Shown here: positions 14,723 through 38,671 of the stretch, piece after piece
Layout: each line of letters opens with the position of its first letter
Position numbering within the stretch: position 1 is the stretch's first letter
Assembly (NCBI GenBank): GCA_029858305.1
Contig: JAOUFI010000016.1
Coordinates: 1-38,671 of the forward strand
Length of the DNA: 38,671 nucleotides
From: Candidatus Thorarchaeota archaeon
GTDB lineage: Archaea > Asgardarchaeota > Thorarchaeia > Thorarchaeales > Thorarchaeaceae
Direction: 5' to 3'
Notes under the pieces: model-generated
Database searches by the model: none
What the model saw: only the letters and a program-made list of their open reading frames with translations
What the model was told of the DNA's origin: nothing
Made by a program: the position numbers and the translations under genes

Positions 14723-16285
14723 CTATTTCATTTCAGCTAGTTCTTTCATTCGTGTTTCCACTATCTCGAGAATTTCTTCCTTGAGTTTACGACCTTCAGT
14801 GAGAATCTTCTCGATTTCTTTTGCAGTCTTGTCTACAAAGCTCTTGTTCTTGATGTTACCAAGATTGATTCGCACATTGAGTGCTGCACCTTCAATAGCG
14901 GCCATTAAGGCATGGGATGCAACACCAGCATCTGTAATGGTGTTGATGTTTCCATTTTGAGCCATGAATTTTGCATGTTCAAGTGCATTAAAGGAATGCT
15001 TCATGGTCGCCAAGGGCATCTCGGCTGCATGGATAGTGGCTTTCTCGGTTGCTTCCGCCTTTGTTTTCTTATCGGCGGCAGTTTCATCAGGCATCCTGAA
15101 TGTTTCCATCACTACATCAAAAGCAGCTGAGTCTTTCTCGATGAGATCCATAAGGAGACCCCGATCGTATTCACAAGCATGGCGGTGTTCTATCATCTCA
15201 TCCTTGATACCAGCGAATTTTCTTCCTGAGAGTGAAAGACCAGCGACCATGCATACCAGTCCGGCTCCAAAAGAACCCATTGCCGCAGCAACACTACCAC
15301 CACCGGGAGTTGCACGAGCTCGTCGAACTTCATTTCCAAATTCAATCATTGACATCTCGGTGAATGTTTTCTTTGTGGGGTCTTGTGCTCCCCCAAGGTA
15401 GTAGAGGTCTAGAATCATTGACTCCTCTAGCTTCTCGGGTTGGAGATAATACTTGAGAGCATCAAGAAGAGCAAAGAGTGGCACCATTCCAATAATCTCG
15501 GTTTCTATGACTGTTGCACCAAACCTGCGCGCTTCGTTCTTCACAACCTCAAACACTTGGTGAATCTTAGTGCGTCGAGGATGTGTGAGATTGAGTGAAA
15601 CCTGAACGCAATTCTTAGCAGGAAGATCAAGTCCTATACCTTGAACGTTGACAAAGCCACCAGTAGTTCCTCGTACCGCATCTGCACAAGCCTTTGCAAC
15701 AGCAACATTAGTTGTATTCAGGTTGAAATTGATTGCAATGAGAAAGTTTCGAGAACCTGTGGCTGTCGCACCTGCGGTTGGATGAATCTTATTTGGACCA
15801 TAGTCAGGAGTCTTTTCAGGATCGGTGCCAATCAGGTCTCTGAGGCCCTCAAATTCTCCCTCACGAATATTTGGCAAATCGACTCTGTCTTTTCTTGTAG
15901 CAGCCTTGGAATATAGATAGACTGGTACATTATGTTTCTTGGAGAACTCATCAGCAAACTCCTTCGAGAGCTCGATACACTCGCCTACTGTGGTACCATG
16001 GAGTGGAATGAAGGGAACAACATCGACTGCACCCATTCGAGGGTGTGCACCTTTGTGCTTCGTCAAATCGATTTTCTCCACCGCTACATCAGCAGCCTTC
16101 AGAGCAGCTATTTTCACGTCCTGAGGTTCACCAATGAATGTGAATACAGAACGGTTATGATCTGGGTCAAACTCAATGTCGAGAAGTCGAACTGATTCCA
16201 CACTCTTGATTGCATCAGCAATTGCATCAATGACTTCCTTTCTACGGCCTTCAGAGAAGTTGGGTACACACTCAACGACTTTCAA
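14723..16285 (-). CDS. ftcd: Fused glutamate formiminotransferase / formiminotetrahydrofolate cyclodeaminase
   Basis: N-domain ECVPNFSEGR, DPDHNRSV, HPRMGAVDV; C-domain TPGGGSVAA, NVRINL. TTG start 16285 after GGTGA. Confidence 0.93.
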   Translation of the reverse strand: MKVVECVPNFSEGRRKEVIDAIADAIKSVESVRLLDIEFDPDHNRSVFTFIGEPQDVKIAALKAADVAVEKIDLTKHKGAHPRMGAVDVVPFIPLHGTTVGECIELSKEFADEFSKKHNVPVYLYSKAATRKDRVDLPNIREGEFEGLRDLIGTDPEKTPDYGPNKIHPTAGATATGSRNFLIAINFNLNTTNVAVAKACADAVRGTTGGFVNVQGIGLDLPAKNCVQVSLNLTHPRRTKIHQVFEVVKNEARRFGATVIETEIIGMVPLFALLDALKYYLQPEKLEESMILDLYYLGGAQDPTKKTFTEMSMIEFGNEVRRARATPGGGSVAAAMGSFGAGLVCMVAGLSLSGRKFAGIKDEMIEHRHACEYDRGLLMDLIEKDSAAFDVVMETFRMPDETAADKKTKAEATEKATIHAAEMPLATMKHSFNALEHAKFMAQNGNINTITDAGVASHALMAAIEGAALNVRINLGNIKNKSFVDKTAKEIEKILTEGRKLKEEILEIVETRMKELAEMK

Positions 16286-16357
16286 ACGATTCACCGAGGA
16301 CCGTTCGAACCTATGACATAGAAAAGCGTTTGGGCATGCGCTCAAAGACAATGAAAA

Positions 16358-17242
16358 TCACTTAGTCACTTGAGCAACATATGCATCCAGCACATTTCGA
16401 AGGAGCAAGGTGATAGTCATAGGACCGACTCCTCCTGGAACAGGAGTGATACATTTTGCCTTCTCCTTCACATTCTCAAAGTCAACATCGCCATACGGAG
16501 TCGCAACATCAATAACCACAGCATCATCCTTTATCATATCCGCAGTGATGAAGAATGAATCTTCCTTACTCTTTCTGCGACCAATTGCTGTTATCAGAAC
16601 GTCAGCCTGCCTTGTAAAGCTTGCAAGATCAGCAGTTCGTGAGTGACAGACGGTTACAGTAGCATTTCTGTTCAAGAGCAAAAAGATGAGTGGTTTTCCA
16701 ACAATCGTTGATCGATTGATGACGACCACATGCTTTCCTGAGAGGTCATTCATCCCGAGATTGTCCAATATTGTGACTATACCATGAGGTGTGGCGGAAC
16801 TAAGCTCTTCACCACCATAAAAGAGATGATAGATATTCGCCGGAGAGAATCCATCCACATCCTTTAGGGGAGCAATTGCACTAATAATGGTCTTTTCGTC
16901 GATGTGGGGAGGAAGAGGTAATTGGACGAGAATCCCATGGACTGCCTTGTCCTTATTGAGACGATCAAGCAGCTTCAGTAATTCATCCTGAGTTGTTGTT
17001 ACAGGAAGATCATAATTGTCAGAGAGGATTCCGGCATCGCTTGAGGCTTTGCGCTTCATTCGAACATACATCTGGGAACCCTCGTCCTCCCCAACAATTA
17101 TTGTGACAAGTTTGGGGGCGATGCCATGCTTAGCAACGAGTTGTTCCACTTCCATTTTGACTTGGGTACGAAGGCGCTTTGAGAGCCTTTTTCCCATTAT
17201 AACGTGGTCCTCGCAGATTGGTCTTTCCTCATCTTCCGACAT
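16358..17242 (-). CDS. folD: Methylene-THF dehydrogenase / methenyl-THF cyclohydrolase
   Basis: YVRMK, GILVQLPLP, KDVDG, ATVTVCHSRT and TPVPGGVGPMT motifs. Confidence 0.95.
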   Translation of the reverse strand: MSEDEERPICEDHVIMGKRLSKRLRTQVKMEVEQLVAKHGIAPKLVTIIVGEDEGSQMYVRMKRKASSDAGILSDNYDLPVTTTQDELLKLLDRLNKDKAVHGILVQLPLPPHIDEKTIISAIAPLKDVDGFSPANIYHLFYGGEELSSATPHGIVTILDNLGMNDLSGKHVVVINRSTIVGKPLIFLLLNRNATVTVCHSRTADLASFTRQADVLITAIGRRKSKEDSFFITADMIKDDAVVIDVATPYGDVDFENVKEKAKCITPVPGGVGPMTITLLLRNVLDAYVAQVTK

Positions 17243-17254
17243 TGAAATCACCTT

Positions 17255-18856
17255 TTAGAATACTCCACTGATGTTGCCGTCATCATCAACATCCATCTGT
17301 TCTGCTGCTGGGAATTCTGGAAGGCCAGGCATGAGACTGATGTCGCCCATATAAATTACAACAAACCCAGCACCGTTGCTCACATCAGCACCTACGACTT
17401 CCACATTAAAACCGCATGGTTTCCCTAGTAGTCCCTTGTTGTCAGACAGGCTAAACTGAGTTTTGGCAATGCAAATTGGCAGATTTCCATAGCCTCGTTT
17501 CTCAAGGGAACTGATGCGACCTCGCGCGCCTGTAGTGTAGTCAACATCGCGCGCACCATAGATTTGTTGAGCCACTTTCAAAATCTTAGTCTTGATTGGG
17601 TCATCTAGATCATAGGTGTACTTTATTGGTGCAGCTGGTTGTGATTGTATAATTTCGACCACAGTTCTTGCCAGATCTTTGCCACCCTCGCTCCCTTTGG
17701 CATAGACTTCCGACACTTCAACCTTGACATCACTCATGGAACAATGCTTCCGGATGAGTTCAATCTCTTCATCAGTATCGTCTGGAAATCTATTGACAGC
17801 GACCACCACTGGAACTCCAAAATTACGCATATTTTCAACATGCTTCTCAAGATTTGGAAAGCCTTGTTCAAGAACATCATTCCCATGAGTCTTGAGTGCC
17901 CGAATTGTTGTGATGATGACACAGGCATCTACCTTCAGGTCGCCTGTTCTAGCCGCGATATTGAAGAATTTCTCAGCGCCAAGGTCGGCTCCAAATCCAG
18001 CCTCAATGACAACATAGTCAAAGAGCCGAAGAGCAAGATCAGTCGCAATGATAGAGCTAGTGCCGTGCGCAATATTTGCAAAGGGCCCTGTGTGCATTAG
18101 TGCTGGCGTTCCCTCCATGGTCTGAATAAGGTTAGGTTTCAAAGCATCACGAAGAAGGACTGTCATTGCTCCATTAGCCTTCACGTCCTTTGCATACATC
18201 TCTTTCAACTGTTCAGACCTAGCTATCAGGATGTTACCCAACCGCTCCTTTAATTCATGATAATTCATTGATAGACCTAGGATAGCCATCACCTCTGAGG
18301 CAGAGGTTATTATGAAAGTGTCTTCTCGTGGCATTCCATCATATCTACCGCCAAGACCCACAATGACTTTTCTCAGTGCGCGATCGTTCATGTCAACATT
18401 TCTTGGCCAATAGGTTCGTCGAATGTCAATCTCGGGTTGATGGTCAAATTGAACATAATTATCAATCATTGCAGAGAGGAGGTTGTGAGCTGCAGCCACT
18501 GCAGGAAAATCACCAGTGAGAAAGAGGTTAACCTGTTCAAATGGTTCAAGCCGAGATTTACCTCCACCTGCTGCACCACCCTTAACACCAAATACAGGAC
18601 CCAAGGACGGTTGGCGGAGTGTCACTACAGCATTATGACCCAAGGCATTCAGAGCCATCGATAAACCAATGGAATTGGTTGTCTTACCCTCCCCTGCTGG
18701 TGTAGGATTTGTAGCAGTGACTAGGATTAATTTTCCTTTTCGAGGCCCAAGATTCTTACGAATATCGAGGTTAATCTTAGCCATATACTTGCCATAAAGT
18801 TCCAAGAACTTCTTGTCAATACCAGCCTTCTTTGCCACATCAGTGATTGGAATCAT
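17255..18856 (-). CDS. fhs: Formate-tetrahydrofolate ligase
   Basis: PTPAGEGKTT, GVKGGAAGGG, GPFANIAHG, EAGFGADLGAEKF and ICIAKTQFS motifs. Start placed at ATG 18856. Confidence 0.95.
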   Translation of the reverse strand: MIPITDVAKKAGIDKKFLELYGKYMAKINLDIRKNLGPRKGKLILVTATNPTPAGEGKTTNSIGLSMALNALGHNAVVTLRQPSLGPVFGVKGGAAGGGKSRLEPFEQVNLFLTGDFPAVAAAHNLLSAMIDNYVQFDHQPEIDIRRTYWPRNVDMNDRALRKVIVGLGGRYDGMPREDTFIITSASEVMAILGLSMNYHELKERLGNILIARSEQLKEMYAKDVKANGAMTVLLRDALKPNLIQTMEGTPALMHTGPFANIAHGTSSIIATDLALRLFDYVVIEAGFGADLGAEKFFNIAARTGDLKVDACVIITTIRALKTHGNDVLEQGFPNLEKHVENMRNFGVPVVVAVNRFPDDTDEEIELIRKHCSMSDVKVEVSEVYAKGSEGGKDLARTVVEIIQSQPAAPIKYTYDLDDPIKTKILKVAQQIYGARDVDYTTGARGRISSLEKRGYGNLPICIAKTQFSLSDNKGLLGKPCGFNVEVVGADVSNGAGFVVIYMGDISLMPGLPEFPAAEQMDVDDDGNISGVF

Positions 18857-18903
18857 TCTAATCAGACCCAGCCTATTAGCATCTATGGTTTTTTTCGATG
18901 TTA

Positions 18904-18916
18904 TTATCACTGATAA
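18904..18916. promoter_or_regulatory. Palindrome TTATCA-C-TGATAA, candidate operator in the fhs / RLP divergent region
   Basis: Perfect 6-1-6 inverted repeat about 50 nt upstream of the fhs start. Confidence 0.3.
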
Positions 18917-19055
18917 AATAAGCTCTCTGGCAAGCAACTCCATGTCACATGCTAAACAGAGCTATTCTTTGCTTTTCAGTTAGGATTGTGTTGTCTGTAA
19001 TTCTCTGCAAAAGAACATAAGACGGGGTGTCCATGTAGTAGACCGGTTGATTGTC

Positions 19056-20369
19056 ATGGATAAACTCCCACTTGACGCATTACCTGACGCCCTCCCTGAT
19101 GCAATTGACGAGGAAAAGTACGTCATTGGCACGTACTATGTTGGTCTTCCCCCGTTTCTAGATGCACGAGAGATGGCTTGGGCTGCAGCAGTTGAACAGA
19201 GTACTGGAACATGGACTCTTGTCCCTGGAGAAACCCCAGAGATTCGAAGAAGGCATGTTGCAAAGGTCATTGGAGTGTATGAAGTTCCACAGCATGAGTA
19301 TAGTATCCCCAAGGACCTAGAAAGACGAGAATATATCATGCAAGTTGCCTTCCCTTGGGAGAACTTCGGTCAACAGATTCCGATGCTTCTCAGTACTGTG
19401 ATTGGTAACATCTCCCTCTATGGGAGAATCAAATGCTTGGACATGAAGTTTCCCAAGAGCTGGCTAAAGGGATTCAAAGGGCCAAAGTTTGGCATCTCTG
19501 GTCTTAGGAAACTATTGAAAATAAAGAAAAGACCCCTTCTGAACAACATGATCAAACCATGTGTCTACACATCTTGCCAGATGGGGGCGGACCTAGCCTT
19601 TGAGGCTGCTGTAGGCGGAGCAGACATTATCAAGGATGATGAACTCCTAGCGAACCCGGAATTCAATACTCTAGAAGACAGAATTCCACGTTTTATGGAA
19701 GCACTAGACCGTGCAGACTCAGAGAAGGGAGAGAAGACCATCTATACGGTCAACATCACTGACAAACTGCCAAGAATGTTCGAAAATGCTGAAAGAGCAG
19801 TCGAGCTGGGAGCAAATGGTCTAATGATTAATTTCCTTGCAGTGGGATACTCCGCTTTCCAACACGTCTGTGAGAACCTGTCACCCAAAGTTCCAGTTCT
19901 TGCACACATGGATGTAACTGGAGCAATGTCATATTCACCCATTGTGGGTATTGCTTCAAACCTAGTGACCGGCAAACTGCCAAGAATCTGCGGGTCTGAC
20001 ATCACCGTGTTTCCAGCTCCATATGGAAAAGCTCCGATTCTCAAGGAGAGGTTCCTCAATATCGCTCATGATATGATCATGCCACTTCACAACATCGAAC
20101 AAACAGCTCCGATGCCGAGTGGCGGAATTAGCCCAGGACACGTTGAGGAGGTCATGAACGACCTAGGTCCAGATATAGTAATAGGAACCGGTGCGGGTAT
20201 CCACGCGCATCCAAAGGGTCCACGTGCAGGAGCTATTGCATTCAGACAAGCTATCGAAGCAAAAATGCAGGATATTCCTGTAAGCAGGTATGCAAAAGAA
20301 GAAGGTCATGAAGAGCTCAAAATTGCCATGGAATCGTGGGGCACAGGAAAAACAGGAGCCGATCTCTAA
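19056..20369 (+). CDS. RuBisCO-like protein (form IV RLP)
   Basis: EQSTGTW, IGN, IKP, GADIIKDDE, YGK, PSGG and HP motifs. Positions equivalent to K177, R295 and H327 are not conserved. Confidence 0.9.
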   Translation: MDKLPLDALPDALPDAIDEEKYVIGTYYVGLPPFLDAREMAWAAAVEQSTGTWTLVPGETPEIRRRHVAKVIGVYEVPQHEYSIPKDLERREYIMQVAFPWENFGQQIPMLLSTVIGNISLYGRIKCLDMKFPKSWLKGFKGPKFGISGLRKLLKIKKRPLLNNMIKPCVYTSCQMGADLAFEAAVGGADIIKDDELLANPEFNTLEDRIPRFMEALDRADSEKGEKTIYTVNITDKLPRMFENAERAVELGANGLMINFLAVGYSAFQHVCENLSPKVPVLAHMDVTGAMSYSPIVGIASNLVTGKLPRICGSDITVFPAPYGKAPILKERFLNIAHDMIMPLHNIEQTAPMPSGGISPGHVEEVMNDLGPDIVIGTGAGIHAHPKGPRAGAIAFRQAIEAKMQDIPVSRYAKEEGHEELKIAMESWGTGKTGADL

Positions 20370-30185: not shown

Positions 30186-30734
30186 CTATATTTGCTTCTG
30201 CTCGCGGTTTACTACAAGAACCTCAGCAAGCTCCTCGAAAATATCGATGATTCCCTCTCCAGTCTTTGCACTACTCTCAATATAGGGCATATCATGATTG
30301 TCCGCAAATTCACGGCCTTCGGATGGTTCAACCACACGGTCAGGAAGATCTGTTTTGTTTGCTACCAGAATCAGTGGGATGGTCTTCCCAAGCGCTTTAT
30401 GGAGCTCCTCGAGCCATTCCTCAAGCACGATGAAGGTTCTGCGTCTTGTTACGTCATAGACCAGCAGGCCCCCACTTGAACCTCTATAATACATTGGTCT
30501 CAGAATCTGGAACCGCGACTGGCCTGCGACATCCCAAATCTGCAGCTTCACTGTGACCTTCTCGTGCTCAGACTTGACAATGTCGACATTCTTTACAGCG
30601 AACTGGGACCCGATGGTTGTCTTGTAATCCGTCCTGAAGAATCCGTGGGAGAAACGAGTAACGATGGCAGTCTTGCCTACTGCGCCTTCTCCCAAAATTA
30701 CGATTTTAAAAAGGTAGTCATAGGCACTGCTCAT
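30186..30734 (-). CDS. Rab-like small GTPase (Ras superfamily)
   Basis: G1 GEGAVGKT, G2 TIG, G3 WDVAGQ, G4 NKTD, G5 SAK; RabF-like KLQIW, YYRG, LVYDVT; N-terminal YDYLFK. Confidence 0.95.
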   Translation of the reverse strand: MSSAYDYLFKIVILGEGAVGKTAIVTRFSHGFFRTDYKTTIGSQFAVKNVDIVKSEHEKVTVKLQIWDVAGQSRFQILRPMYYRGSSGGLLVYDVTRRRTFIVLEEWLEELHKALGKTIPLILVANKTDLPDRVVEPSEGREFADNHDMPYIESSAKTGEGIIDIFEELAEVLVVNREQKQI

Positions 30735-33971: not shown

Positions 33972-34373
33972 CTACGCTGGCAGGATCACAGTATCAATCA
34001 CATGAATGACACCATTGCTGGCCTCGATATCGGCCTTCACAACATTAGCGTTGTTGACCTTTACGCCAGACTTAGTATCAATCTTGATGTCCTGTCCCTG
34101 GACTGTCTTAGCCTTTTTCAAGTTCATGACATCCTTGGACATGACCTTACCTGACACGACATGATAGGTCAGGATTGAAGTTAGCTTTGCTTTGTCTTTC
34201 AAGAGAGACTCTACGGTACCCTTTGGGAGTTTGGCAAATGCCTCATCAGTCGGTGCGAAGACTGTGAATGGACCCTTACCTTTTAGAGTTTCTACAAGAC
34301 CTGCTGCCTGCACGGCTGCAACAAGAGTCTTGAAGCTGCCTGCGGCTATAGCTGTTTCTACGATGTTTTTCAT
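33972..34373 (-). CDS. Single-domain fasciclin (FAS1) protein
   Basis: H1 [20 protein letters not shown] and H2 [15 protein letters not shown] 34373 follows GGTGA. Confidence 0.95.
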
Positions 34374-34490
34374 AATAATCACCAAAAAGTTTGGTAAAAA
34401 GTTCTAGAATTAACAATAGTGAATTATTATATATATCTTGTGGCCGTGGCTATTTCGTGCTATCATTTGACAACTTGACTGACGAAATTG

Positions 34491-35291: not shown

Positions 35292-35396
35292 AATATAATA
35301 GCTTAGACAAATGCATAAAAATACACTTTTTCAGCATTTTAGAATATTCAGGTATCTTTTTCTCTAGAGTGTACAGAGTGAACAGGAGTGAGCTCC

Positions 35397-36776
35397 ATGG
35401 CGGACAGACTCTTCGGAACAACTGGTGTACGGAAGATATATGGTAGCGAATTTGATCTTGAGATGGCACTCAACCTAGGAAAAGCACTTGGAACTTTATT
35501 GGGAGAGGGGACAGTTCTTGTTGCAAGGGATGCACGCACAACTGGACTGATGGTTGCAGATACACTCTCAGCAGGTCTGCTTTCGACAGGAGTCAATGTC
35601 ATCCAAGCTGGTATCATTCCAACGCCCACGCTAGCATTCATAACAATGCGTCGAGGATTAGATGCAGGCGTCATGGTGACCGCATCTCACAATCCACCAG
35701 AGTACACTGGAGTCAAGTTCTGGTCAAAGACCAGTATGGGATTTACATCAGAGGAGGAGCGGCAGCTTGAAGAGATCTATATGTCAAGGAGGTTTAAGGT
35801 CGCGCCTTGGGATAGGTTAGGCAACGAACTTACGACTGAGACTGCTGCTGATGAACACATTCAGGCAATCCTAGCGAATTGTGATACAGATTTGGTAAAG
35901 TCAAAGTCCTACACCGTGGTGGTCGATCCTGGCAATGGTGCAGCTTGCGTCTTGACCCCCTATCTCATGCAGAAGATCTCAGGGAAGGTCGTAACAATAA
36001 ATGGTCAGCTAGATGGACACTTTCCAGGAAGGAAATCGGAGCCAGAAGAGAGCTCTTTAGGTGATCTCATTCAGATGGTGAAAGATATTGGAGCTGACCT
36101 TGGTATAGCTCATGATGGAGACTCCGACAGAGTTGTATTCGTTACTGAGAAGGGAGAGGTAGTCAATGGAGATAGAACAATTGCCCTTCTTGCTGAAGAT
36201 TATCTACGAACCAATAAACAGGGCACCATAGTGACCACTGTGGACAGTTCACTTGTACTTGATGAAACTGTTCAGAAGAGAGGTGGAGAGGTAATTCGAA
36301 CACCTGTAGGTGATATTCAGGTTGCAATGAAAGTGAAAGAAACAGGTGCAGTCATGGGTGGCGAAGCCTGTGGTGTGTTCATCTTTCCAGAGTTCCAACT
36401 AGCTCCAGAACCATTTCTTGCAGCATGCAGGATTCTCGAGATGATGGCGAGAACAGGAAGGAGCTTTGGAGACTTGATTGGTGACATTCCTGTATATCCT
36501 CTGATAAAAGCCAAAGTGAGGTGTCCGAACGAGAAGAAGACACATGTTATGCAGGAGCTTACTAAGGTGCTTCCCAAGGCTTTAGAGAATGTCACCCAAA
36601 TTCTCACAGTAGATGGTATTGGTGTTATATTGAAAGAGGGGTGGATTCTTGTGAGACCATCAGGAACAGAACCCTTGATTAGAATCACGTGCGAAGGACC
36701 CACCCGGAAATTAGTTGAGAAAGTGCTGAGCACAGCACAACATGTTATTGAGAAAACCATCGATTCTACCTCATAA
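35397..36776 (+). CDS. glmM: Phosphohexomutase (phosphoglucosamine mutase / PMM-PGM family)
   Basis: LFGTTGVR, TASHNP, HDGDSDR and VRPSGTEP motifs. Exact sugar specificity cannot be determined from sequence. Confidence 0.85.
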   Translation: MADRLFGTTGVRKIYGSEFDLEMALNLGKALGTLLGEGTVLVARDARTTGLMVADTLSAGLLSTGVNVIQAGIIPTPTLAFITMRRGLDAGVMVTASHNPPEYTGVKFWSKTSMGFTSEEERQLEEIYMSRRFKVAPWDRLGNELTTETAADEHIQAILANCDTDLVKSKSYTVVVDPGNGAACVLTPYLMQKISGKVVTINGQLDGHFPGRKSEPEESSLGDLIQMVKDIGADLGIAHDGDSDRVVFVTEKGEVVNGDRTIALLAEDYLRTNKQGTIVTTVDSSLVLDETVQKRGGEVIRTPVGDIQVAMKVKETGAVMGGEACGVFIFPEFQLAPEPFLAACRILEMMARTGRSFGDLIGDIPVYPLIKAKVRCPNEKKTHVMQELTKVLPKALENVTQILTVDGIGVILKEGWILVRPSGTEPLIRITCEGPTRKLVEKVLSTAQHVIEKTIDSTS

Positions 36777-36850: not shown

Positions 36851-37240
36851 ATGAGCAAAGAAAAGAAGGAACTTGAAGATGCGGTGATGGAAGAATTCGA
36901 GTGGGCACTTCAGGATCCAAACACAGAGAAAATCCGCCAACTAGGCGAAGTCGTAAGTATCATTACCACCAAGCTCACTGAGGCGATTTCCAATCTTCAA
37001 GCGACAACAGTTCAGCTCCAGTCAGAAGTTAATGCCTTGGCCTCTAGACTTGATTCACTATCGAGTCGGATTGCTAGCGGTGCCACGGTCTCAGCAGGAG
37101 GTCCCTCAGCAGCTGGAGGAGAACCAATTCCAACCATGGCAAAGGCGCCGACAGCTCCCCCACCCGCACCAGGAGGAGGTATGAGTATGATGGGCGAACT
37201 CAAACAACTACTGGCTGCAAGAAGAAGAAAGACCGATTAG
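36851..37240 (+). CDS. Small coiled-coil / proline-rich protein with C-terminal Ena/VASP FAB- or WH2-like helix
   Basis: Leucine heptad L42-L49-L56-L63-L70, then APTAPPPAPGGG and MMGELKQLLAARRRKTD. GGAG SD and TTTATA upstream. Confidence 0.75.
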   Translation: MSKEKKELEDAVMEEFEWALQDPNTEKIRQLGEVVSIITTKLTEAISNLQATTVQLQSEVNALASRLDSLSSRIASGATVSAGGPSAAGGEPIPTMAKAPTAPPPAPGGGMSMMGELKQLLAARRRKTD

Positions 37241-37249
37241 TTCATTTTG

Positions 37250-37903
37250 TTACAAGAGACTCTCAACACTGTTTTCCTTATAGAATGGTCCAGCATGTTC
37301 AGGAAGAGTAATTGAAAAAGCCTCAGCACGATCACATTTTGCTTGTGCTCCACGAAGCCTAGTTCTGGCATCGTAGAGTTTCTCATAGAACAAGTCTGCT
37401 TTTTGAAGCTGAGACTTGTGTTCCTTAATCGCACCTAGTGCATACTTGTATGTTTTTGTGATGTCAACATATACGTGCGGTCGTGAGATCATAGTATTGA
37501 TCTCCATGTTGTAGATGCGTTCGACCCTATGTGCATCATCAAATAGAGTTGTGTGGGAAGCCCATTCGACTGCATCAAAGACTATCTGCGCGCATTGCTG
37601 ATGATTCACGTTGTAGTCCCCAGAGAAATGAGTTATCACAATCTTAGGACGTGATCTCAGAATAGCTCCTATGACTTCATTTCTGAGGCTCATGTCTATG
37701 GCAAAATCATCCCGGTCGCTTTGGAAAAGATTTCGTACTCCAAGATGGCAACAGGCAGCCTTCAACTCAGAGTTCCTAGTTTCATTACCGGTCATGCAGT
37801 GCACGTCAACAGGAATCCCAAGATCAGTATGTTTTCGTATCGTGCCACCAGCTCCAAGACTCTCATCGTCAGGGTGTGCCACTACGACTAGGATGGAACT
37901 CAT
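37250..37903 (-). CDS. PIG-L / LmbE-family de-N-acetylase (BshB-like)
   Basis: VVAHPDDESLGAGGTI, VDIT, HKSQ and AEAF motifs. Divergent from the bshA-like gene. Confidence 0.85.
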   Translation of the reverse strand: MSSILVVVAHPDDESLGAGGTIRKHTDLGIPVDVHCMTGNETRNSELKAACCHLGVRNLFQSDRDDFAIDMSLRNEVIGAILRSRPKIVITHFSGDYNVNHQQCAQIVFDAVEWASHTTLFDDAHRVERIYNMEINTMISRPHVYVDITKTYKYALGAIKEHKSQLQKADLFYEKLYDARTRLRGAQAKCDRAEAFSITLPEHAGPFYKENSVESLL

Positions 37904-38000: not shown

Positions 38001-38671
38001 ATGGCTATGCGAATTGGCGTGAATCTCTATCCTTCAGTGGGTGGTAGCGGTTATGTTGCTACTAGACTTGGCCAACACCTAGCAGATAAAGGACACCTGA
38101 TACACTTTATCACTTATCAGAGACCCTTCTCATTGATGTGGCAGCAGACAAAGGGTGTGTACGTTGATCTCGTCGATAGCTTTGACTATCCGTTATTCAA
38201 TTCGATTGGACCGCCGTATACTATGGCACTCACATCAAAGATTATCAAGGTGGCAAAGACTGCTGAGTTGGACCTGATCCACGCACATTATGCGATTCCT
38301 CATGCAATGGCGGCATACATGGCGCGTGAGATTATTGGTATACCCTATGTTGTAACACTTCATGGTTCAGACGTTCATACTCTAGGACAGGACCCTGCAT
38401 ACAAACCTGTGGTCCAGCATACTGTAGAGAGAGCAGATGCAGTGACAGCGGTCTCAGAATTTCTTGCAGACAAGGCTCACAAAGAACTTGGAATCAAGAG
38501 AGAGATCCATGTTATTCCTAACTTCATCGACACCGAGAAATTCACAGGGGTATCAGGCATCAGGCTTGTTGTTGAGAGTGGATGCATTTCCGTACGAAAA
38601 GAGGAGGATGCCTTCGAATTAGGTCCTGACGATAAGATATTACTTCACGCTTCCAATTTTCGAAAGGTAAA
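38001..38671 (+). CDS. bshA: GT4 glycosyltransferase, BshA-like N-acetyl-alpha-D-glucosaminyl L-malate synthase (3' end beyond window)
   Basis: Not in the ORF track because it has no stop in the window. My translation gives MAMRIGVNLYPSVGGSGYVATRLG, LDLIHAHYAIPHA, TLHGSDV, VTAVS, IPNFID and HASNFRKV, all BshA-type blocks. AGGAG SD upstream. Confidence 0.85.
   Translation, partial: MAMRIGVNLYPSVGGSGYVATRLGQHLADKGHLIHFITYQRPFSLMWQQTKGVYVDLVDSFDYPLFNSIGPPYTMALTSKIIKVAKTAELDLIHAHYAIPHAMAAYMAREIIGIPYVVTLHGSDVHTLGQDPAYKPVVQHTVERADAVTAVSEFLADKAHKELGIKREIHVIPNFIDTEKFTGVSGIRLVVESGCISVRKEEDAFELGPDDKILLHASNFRKV

Follow-up and report, generated by a model that had tools for sequence, protein, structure and literature searches.

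A small coiled-coil protein family of Asgard archaea with a near-invariant C-terminal helix: a candidate actin adaptor

Near the end of a contig of a Candidatus Thorarchaeota archaeon (assembly GCA_029858305.1, contig JAOUFI010000016.1; genome of 3.04 Mb, 89% complete) lies a small gene that raises the question of which partner a coiled-coil protein with a conserved basic C-terminus would hold in an Asgard cell, and whether this partner is actin. The window considered here is the whole stretch of 38,671 nucleotides that was analysed. The first-pass annotation of this DNA described an open reading frame of 129 residues and interpreted it as a minimal Ena/VASP-like actin regulator, composed of a coiled coil, a proline-rich linker and a helix resembling the F-actin-binding (FAB) segment of VASP. 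The translation matches this description exactly, and the open reading frame, which begins with ATG and ends in a stop codon, is a complete coding sequence (Table 1).

The protein has a helical hairpin with a leucine zipper at its N-terminus, and a disordered Gly/Ala/Pro tether connects this part to a basic helix at the C-terminus. An AlphaFold2 model based on a 28-sequence alignment predicts helices at residues 3–21, 25–75 and 112–128, with pLDDT values above 90 over residues 31–70 and disorder over residues 76–111; it contains helices and a disordered linker only, without an enzyme-like fold. When the model was used as a query for Foldseek, the best E-value was 6.9, to designed helical proteins. 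The leucine zipper claimed at first reading was borne out: in the best heptad register of residues 25–75, I28, V35, L42, L49, L56, L63 and L70 share one core position (7/7 hydrophobic), while the other is occupied by T, G, T, I46, T, V60, L67 and I74. This long helix is presumed to be an oligomerising stalk, and the terminal helix, residues 112–128, is presumed to be a docking helix. The tether differs among relatives in length and sequence, and within the linker motif of the Thor-type proteins G89, E91, P92 and I93 are conserved at 90% or more. The invariant block at residues 15–46 reads EFEWALxDPNxxKIRQLGEVVSIITTKLxEAI in Thor-type proteins and persists in a weaker form in the alignment of other Asgard families. 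Because its conservation goes beyond the needs of a plain coiled coil, this block is probably a second interaction surface.

Table 1. Coordinates of the gene, of the segments of its product and of the flanking genes, as positions of the window.
Feature	Position	Strand	Basis
Coding sequence, member of an undescribed Asgard-wide family	36851..37240	+	ORF translation, homologue searches
Helix 1, residues 3-21, taking in the start of the invariant block (EFEWAL.DPN)	36857..36913	+	AlphaFold2 model, alignment
Invariant N-terminal block, residues 15-46	36893..36988	+	Alignment, 34 sequences
Long helix, residues 25-75, with leucine-zipper heptad I28, V35, L42, L49, L56, L63, L70	36923..37075	+	Model and heptad scan
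Disordered Gly/Ala/Pro tether, residues 76-111, pLDDT 41-46	37076..37183	+	Model, alignments
Semi-conserved linker motif of Thor-type proteins, residues 89-100, GGEPIPTMAKAP	37115..37150	+	Alignment
Near-invariant tail, residues 108-127, GGGMSMMGELKQLLAARRRK	37172..37231	+	Alignments, profile searches, model
Phosphoglucosamine/phosphoglucomutase gene (glmM), directly upstream	35388..36776	+	25/29 Thor-family loci
PIG-L (BshB-like) deacetylase gene, convergent, downstream	37250..37903	-	28/29 Thor-family loci

Homologue searches yielded 309 sequences at E ≤ 0.01 out of 433 candidates. The 120 homologues listed are 62–89% identical to the protein, and all of them end, as judged by eye, in ..MMGELK.LLAAR... 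In an alignment of 34 Thor sequences, residues 15–46 and the tail (residues 108–127) are invariant, whereas the linker and the central part of the zipper are variable. No other part of the family is as strongly conserved as the C-terminal helix, on whose conservation the initial proposal had depended; every Asgard lineage sampled keeps L117 and K118 without exception, and E116 and L120 almost always. Each of 30 Thor loci has its own DNA version of the 12-codon tail core, 30 in all. The choice among Leu, Gly, Ala and Arg codons is completely mixed, and 11 of the 12 encoded residues are the same throughout. Strong purifying selection on the tail core, at which synonymous change is saturated, and the large number of homologues show that the gene is real. 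In a metatranscriptome run, one contig of 185 nt spans positions 36971–37152 of the window with two mismatches; since DNA carry-over is possible, this is only a weak hint of transcription.

The family had no earlier description: a full-text literature search found no paper describing it, and the nearest ESM Atlas clusters, one from Thorarchaeota and two from Promethearchaeota, are all labelled 'hypothetical'. A Pfam hmmscan of the window protein and 28 members (E ≤ 10) gave no family at the cut-off, and the weak matches were coiled-coil noise; for the 28 members this refers to the 25 most frequent families listed, in a scan whose HMMER filters can drop weak matches to short models. The PDB contains no sequence relative of the protein or of the family. 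Members share a plan of an N-terminal [DE][DE]F..helix, a heptad stalk, a Pro/Gly/Ala tether and a C-terminal ..[ED]LK.L[FL]..[KR][KR] helix in 120–190 residues, and 130 open reading frames at E ≤ 1e-5 were found among the loci examined. The non-Thor members (121–190 residues) follow the same order of N-terminal [DE][DE]F helix, stalk, tether and tail, and the tail of the Loki-type proteins reads ..RPASPVSLRGAIMGELKxLFAKRK.

Within the Asgard phylum the family is widespread. A Thor profile matches 174 of 400 genomes, including 79 of 85 in its own family, and a 34-residue tail profile matches 254 of the 400 and 73 of the 90 high-quality genomes, mostly once per genome. The tail profile is present in families f1 (79/85), f21 (13/14), f22 (121/135), f15 (5/5), f16 (5/6) and f29 (4/4), and it has no match in f8 (0/31), f10 (0/12), f13 (0/12) and f14 (0/19). 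Of 61 genomes sampled from the phylum, 54 were found to encode actin, and members of these four tail-less families are among them. In the source genome, the tail profile matches only the gene described here. Two tandem paralogues occupy one small contig of another genome (L040:599-973 (-) and L040:85-447 (-), on G124:C202), and some others (G127, G130 and G182) contain 2–4 tail matches.

The named contigs with relatives, among the best 80 of 119, are assigned to Promethearchaeota, Promethearchaeia, Hermod-, Hod-, Odin- and Thorarchaeota or to an 'uncultured archaeon', and the cultured Promethearchaeum syntrophicum MK-D1 also carries a member (L147). A contig labelled Nanopelagicaceae bacterium (L150, DATKTW010000134.1) was considered as a bacterial member and rejected, as it is 90–95% identical over ~4 kb to Promethearchaeota loci and is probably mis-binned. 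No homologue outside Asgard archaea was present among the named contigs of the best 80 of 119 relatives or among the atlas clusters. The distribution seen in these searches is restricted to Asgard archaea, and they gave no support to the objection, raised with the original proposal, that homologues might be common in actin-less prokaryotes.

The tail also occurs outside the family. In a search of 1.84 billion representatives, the tail profile retrieved 31 proteins at E ≤ 0.001, which are nearly all family-sized; none of them is eukaryote-like, at a database size at which a profile of 34 positions could not reach VASP. In one protein of 426 residues (P0137), a coil and then a proline-rich stretch connect an Arf/Rag-like GTPase to the tail, and two more Arf/Rag-like GTPase–tail fusions are encoded in different Asgard families (L192:262-1599 (+) and L197:1489-2709 (-)). 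The fusions, at least three in number, match Gtr1_RagA and Arf domains with E-values of 1e-15 to 1e-23 and contain the proline-rich stretch before the tail. The tail is thus a reusable module. The only fused form found with the Thor tail is a phosphoglucomutase (PGM) fusion or merged gene call (P0122), and for the Loki-type tail no fused form was found at E ≤ 1.

The proline content of the linker separates Thor-type from Loki-type members. Among 88 Loki-type proteins, proline runs of at least five residues occur in 58 and of at least three in 81, and seven have runs of two or fewer; the corresponding numbers for 30 Thor-type proteins are 0, 9 and 21. The proline-rich linker proposed for the window protein consequently holds as a tether and fails as a polyproline tract, as the protein contains a single PPP and none of the 30 Thor-type relatives has a run of at least five. 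Without long proline runs in the Thor-type proteins, the idea of a profilin-binding polyproline tract fits the family at large and not the window protein. The profilins themselves bear on this idea: those of Loki and Odin are reported to lack polyproline binding, and the Thor profilin is described as binding only at millimolar concentrations (PMC8410842).

How far the tail resembles known actin-binding motifs was determined by scoring and pattern searches. Human VASP is described as containing a GAB at residues 223–239, the FAB at residues 259–278 and a tetramerising coiled coil at residues 343–380, and the FAB peptide given in the first-pass annotation is printed identically there (PMC10340426). 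In ungapped BLOSUM62 comparisons of this 20-residue peptide with the 6101 open reading frames of the genome, the tail ranks first, with a score of 45 ahead of 39 and 37, and a score of 45 is reached in 0.7% of 300 proteome shuffles. With the 15-residue FAB core the tail ranks third among the 6101, at a score that 72% of the shuffles reach. As the core is at chance, the signal of the 20-mer leans on its Gly run and its basic run. The 17-residue VASP GAB places the protein at rank 869 of 6101. A WH2 helix starts with R-x-x-L-L-x-x-I, and an LKKV/LKKT-type motif follows the amphipathic helix after a few residues. Among 124 distinct tails, a WH2-helix-like start of the form R-x-x-h-h-x-x-h is found in 89, the LKKV-type motif (L[KR][KR][VTA]) in one and the canonical WH2 pattern in none; a FAB-like pattern, which was written after the data had been seen, fits 121. 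A PDB search with the tail profile gave neither a WH2 chain nor a chain from an actin complex. In the Pfam scans of the window protein and of 28 members at E ≤ 10, with the 25 most frequent families listed for the latter, there was no match to the WH2 family (PF02205), to an EVH1 (WH1) domain or to VASP_tetra. The VASP likeness of the tail is suggestive only. From the proposal of an Ena/VASP-like regulator, the layout of coil, tether and end helix stands, as does the polyproline tract for the 58 of 88 Loki-type relatives; formal membership of the WH2 or Ena/VASP families was not supported, and neither was a resemblance to the FAB core above chance.

The genomic neighbourhood differs between lineages. 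In addition to the two genes of Table 1, the Thor gene is flanked by a GT4 glycosyltransferase gene (38001-38669 (+)), which is cut by the end of the window. Genes for actin, profilin or gelsolin were not found nearby in the window or in 18 non-Thor loci, and the actin gene of the source genome (L002:1474-2610) is located on another contig (C185). In 75 of the loci L082–L161, an open reading frame on the same strand ends just upstream of the family gene, and 74 of these 75 belong to one family of ~205 residues (for example L085:2257-2874 (+), with homologues at L086, L097, L106, L112, L114, L130, L136, L034, L035, L045 and L046). The model of this neighbour (mean pLDDT 91.6) has three long helices, and the protein is without a Pfam family. 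Its best structural matches are BAR domains, led by arfaptin (Z 13.7 over 186 residues) and followed by FAM92A, SNX1, APPL and endophilin, with Foldseek E-values of ~1e-2. Because a Z of 13.7 is borderline for helical bundles, the modelled Loki-type neighbour is called BAR-like and not BAR. The neighbour family was not found in the source Thor genome at E ≤ 0.1, which is 89% complete. At the MK-D1-type loci (L147:2295-2912 (+); L036, L039 and L044), the upstream neighbour is instead a protein of 205 residues that combines an Elf1-like zinc ribbon with a long acidic tail.

Other genes of the window were identified as well. A Ras-family small GTPase (Ras, 7.7e-49) of the Asgard-typical, eukaryote-like kind is encoded at 30186-30734 (-), ~6 kb from the gene, and a similar gene lies ~2 kb from the homologue in L041. 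A folate one-carbon block, consisting of formiminotransferase-cyclodeaminase, FolD-type dehydrogenase/cyclohydrolase and formate-tetrahydrofolate ligase, adjoins a RuBisCO large-subunit-like gene, the set occupying 14723-18943 (-) and 19047-20369 (+), and a small fasciclin-domain protein (3e-44) is encoded at 33972-34385 (-).

The explanation that we prefer, with a confidence that stays short of even, is that the protein is an oligomeric adaptor that uses its tail to dock a conserved partner, for which actin is the most likely candidate. In such a small cytosolic adaptor, the N-terminal hairpin and the leucine zipper would pair or bundle several chains, the disordered tether would extend from the stalk, and the near-invariant basic helix at the C-terminus would dock the partner. 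Asgard actin could be bound in its hydrophobic cleft, as by WH2 motifs and arcadin-2, or at the side of the filament, as by the VASP FAB. A stalk bearing several tails would then serve to tether, bundle or feed actin, and the polyproline tract of the Loki-type proteins could add profilin–actin. Actin is considered the most likely partner because the tail has a spacing like that of FAB and WH2 and most relatives contain polyproline, because of the precedent of arcadin-2 and the Asgard-only distribution, and because of the BAR-like and Arf/Rag links, in view of a Lokiactin pull-down. In this pull-down an ARF GTPase (UYP48373.1) was significant and two BAR proteins were detected without reaching significance, and the main text of the study names no such coiled-coil protein as an interactor (PMC13716822). 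This silence of the main text counts against the actin reading, as do the failure of all formal membership tests, the chance-level FAB core and the GAB rank, the absence of an actin-gene neighbourhood, the actin-bearing families without the tail, the reportedly weak or absent binding of polyproline by Asgard profilins, and a window protein without a conserved polyproline tract.

It is possible, although we consider it rather unlikely, that the tail docks a conserved partner other than actin and that the protein is a scaffold in a membrane-remodelling pathway linked to small GTPases and BAR proteins. The three Arf/Rag-like GTPase fusions that end in the tail suggest such a pathway, although in eukaryotes a connection to GTPases and BAR proteins usually ends at actin in any case. 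The BAR-like neighbour at 74 of 75 Loki-type loci suggests it as well, but this neighbour was not found in the source genome and is replaced by the zinc ribbon protein at MK-D1-type loci. The Ras-family genes close to the gene and to the L041 homologue, the failure of every formal actin-motif test, and the invariant N-terminal block, which would be suited to a second specific interaction, are also in line with a scaffold of this kind; however, no candidate partner was found for it.

The remaining alternatives concern the tail helix alone or the neighbouring genes. The tail could act as an MIT-interacting motif and so recruit Vps4, the ESCRT ATPase, and the genome does encode a Vps4 (L164:1492-2721 (-)) with an N-terminal helical domain (residues 1–85). 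A MIM1 follows the consensus [DE]xxLxxRLxxL[KR], in which positions i, i+4 and i+7 are hydrophobic. The short C-terminal helix behind a proline-rich tether shares this hydrophobic pattern, but it has an invariant Glu at the position of the MIM1 arginine, and the consensus, strict or relaxed, fits none of the 124 distinct tails. As the family is not ESCRT-III-like by Pfam and Vps4 is also present in tail-less families (f8, 1/1; f10, 1/1; f14, 2/2), we regard this function as improbable. A direct binding of the basic amphipathic tail to acidic membranes or nucleic acid, which would make the protein a membrane-associated coiled-coil tether, is judged a little less probable again. A cluster of 3–5 Arg/Lys residues indeed follows the hydrophobic helix at the extreme C-terminus, and the weak coiled-coil noise in Pfam includes lipoprotein and baculovirus P10-type families; yet the 14-residue core has a low hydrophobic moment (0.16–0.22), which suits a helix that docks a protein better than one that anchors in a membrane, the invariance of G115, E116, L117 and K118 across divergent lineages points to a protein interface, and Thor-type tails lack an aromatic residue. 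Finally, the Thorarchaeota protein might work together with the sugar and thiol genes on either side of its gene (glmM, bshB-like, GT4). The sampled Thor genomes are close kin, and the synteny of PGM upstream (25/29) and PIG-L convergent downstream (28/29) may therefore be inherited; the adjacency is lost outside the order, where Loki-type loci have other neighbours, and the protein has no enzyme-like fold. Even with the fused PGM gene call (P0122), such a role appears very remote.

A wider proposal builds on the actin adaptor, namely that the family represents an ancestral minimal Asgard polymerase or bundler of actin, with an oligomeric stalk and polyproline and WH2/FAB-like arms, steered by BAR-like and Arf/Rag-like proteins. 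In this full form the proposal is unlikely; if it were true, the assembly logic of Ena/VASP and WASP-type proteins, and perhaps the FAB motif itself, would predate eukaryotes. The family is small, widespread and mostly single-copy, it joins a stalk to a proline-rich arm and to a helix resembling those of VASP and WH2, and its relatives have BAR-like and Arf/Rag-like links. This combination makes it a concrete and cheap-to-test candidate for the missing Asgard factor of actin assembly or tethering, and tests in vivo are possible because the cultured MK-D1 strain carries a member. Actin binding, if true, would bear on the origin of regulated actin assembly before eukaryotes, and if another partner is the true one, the family would still give Asgard cell biology a defined and conserved docking peptide. 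This analysis adds counts across the phylum, a test for selection, statistics from shuffled proteomes, the recurrence of the GTPase fusions and a quantified adjacency to the BAR-like gene.

The comparison with Ena/VASP proteins, which makes no claim of common ancestry, reveals a shared set of parts in a different arrangement. In both, a Gly run precedes a short helix whose hydrophobic residues are spaced alike and which ends in basic residues of the RRRK type. Both also possess a coiled coil for oligomerisation, presumed in the case of the Asgard protein, and the Loki-type relatives add polyproline tracts similar to GP5. The order of the modules is reversed, however, with the coil N-terminal here and C-terminal in VASP, and the family is without an EVH1 domain, a GAB-like motif and a Pfam match to VASP. 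With the WH2 motifs of the N-WASP, WAVE, WIP and thymosin-beta type, the tail has in common a short amphipathic helix with a proline-rich region before it and basic residues after it, and the Loki-type helix starts with R-G-A-I-M-x-E-L, comparable to the R-x-x-L-L-x-x-I start of WH2; the spacer between the helix and the basic cluster is shorter in the family tails. Actin polymerases with oligomerised WH2 motifs and proline-rich regions are a known system.

Within archaea, two systems can be compared. The WH2-like LKDV motif of the Asgard two-domain gelsolin (2DGel) is presented as the one short motif for actin binding that has been described from Asgard proteins to date (10.1101/2025.11.30.690169). 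It is located between two gelsolin domains, whereas the family described here has a different motif and no gelsolin domain. The other system is arcadin-2 of Pyrobaculum calidifontis (PDB 5LY3), an archaeal protein with a structured core, an unstructured and non-conserved linker and a small conserved C-terminal helix, the last 17 residues of which are reported to bind the hydrophobic groove of crenactin with 31 nM affinity; this helix alone carries the actin-binding activity (PMC5173319). The arcadin-2 helix relies on a tryptophan, which is absent from the family tail, and its gene sits in the arcade cluster beside crenactin, whereas the family gene is not beside actin. Arcadin-2 is described as sequestering actin monomers, whereas a multivalent stalk would predict tethering or bundling.
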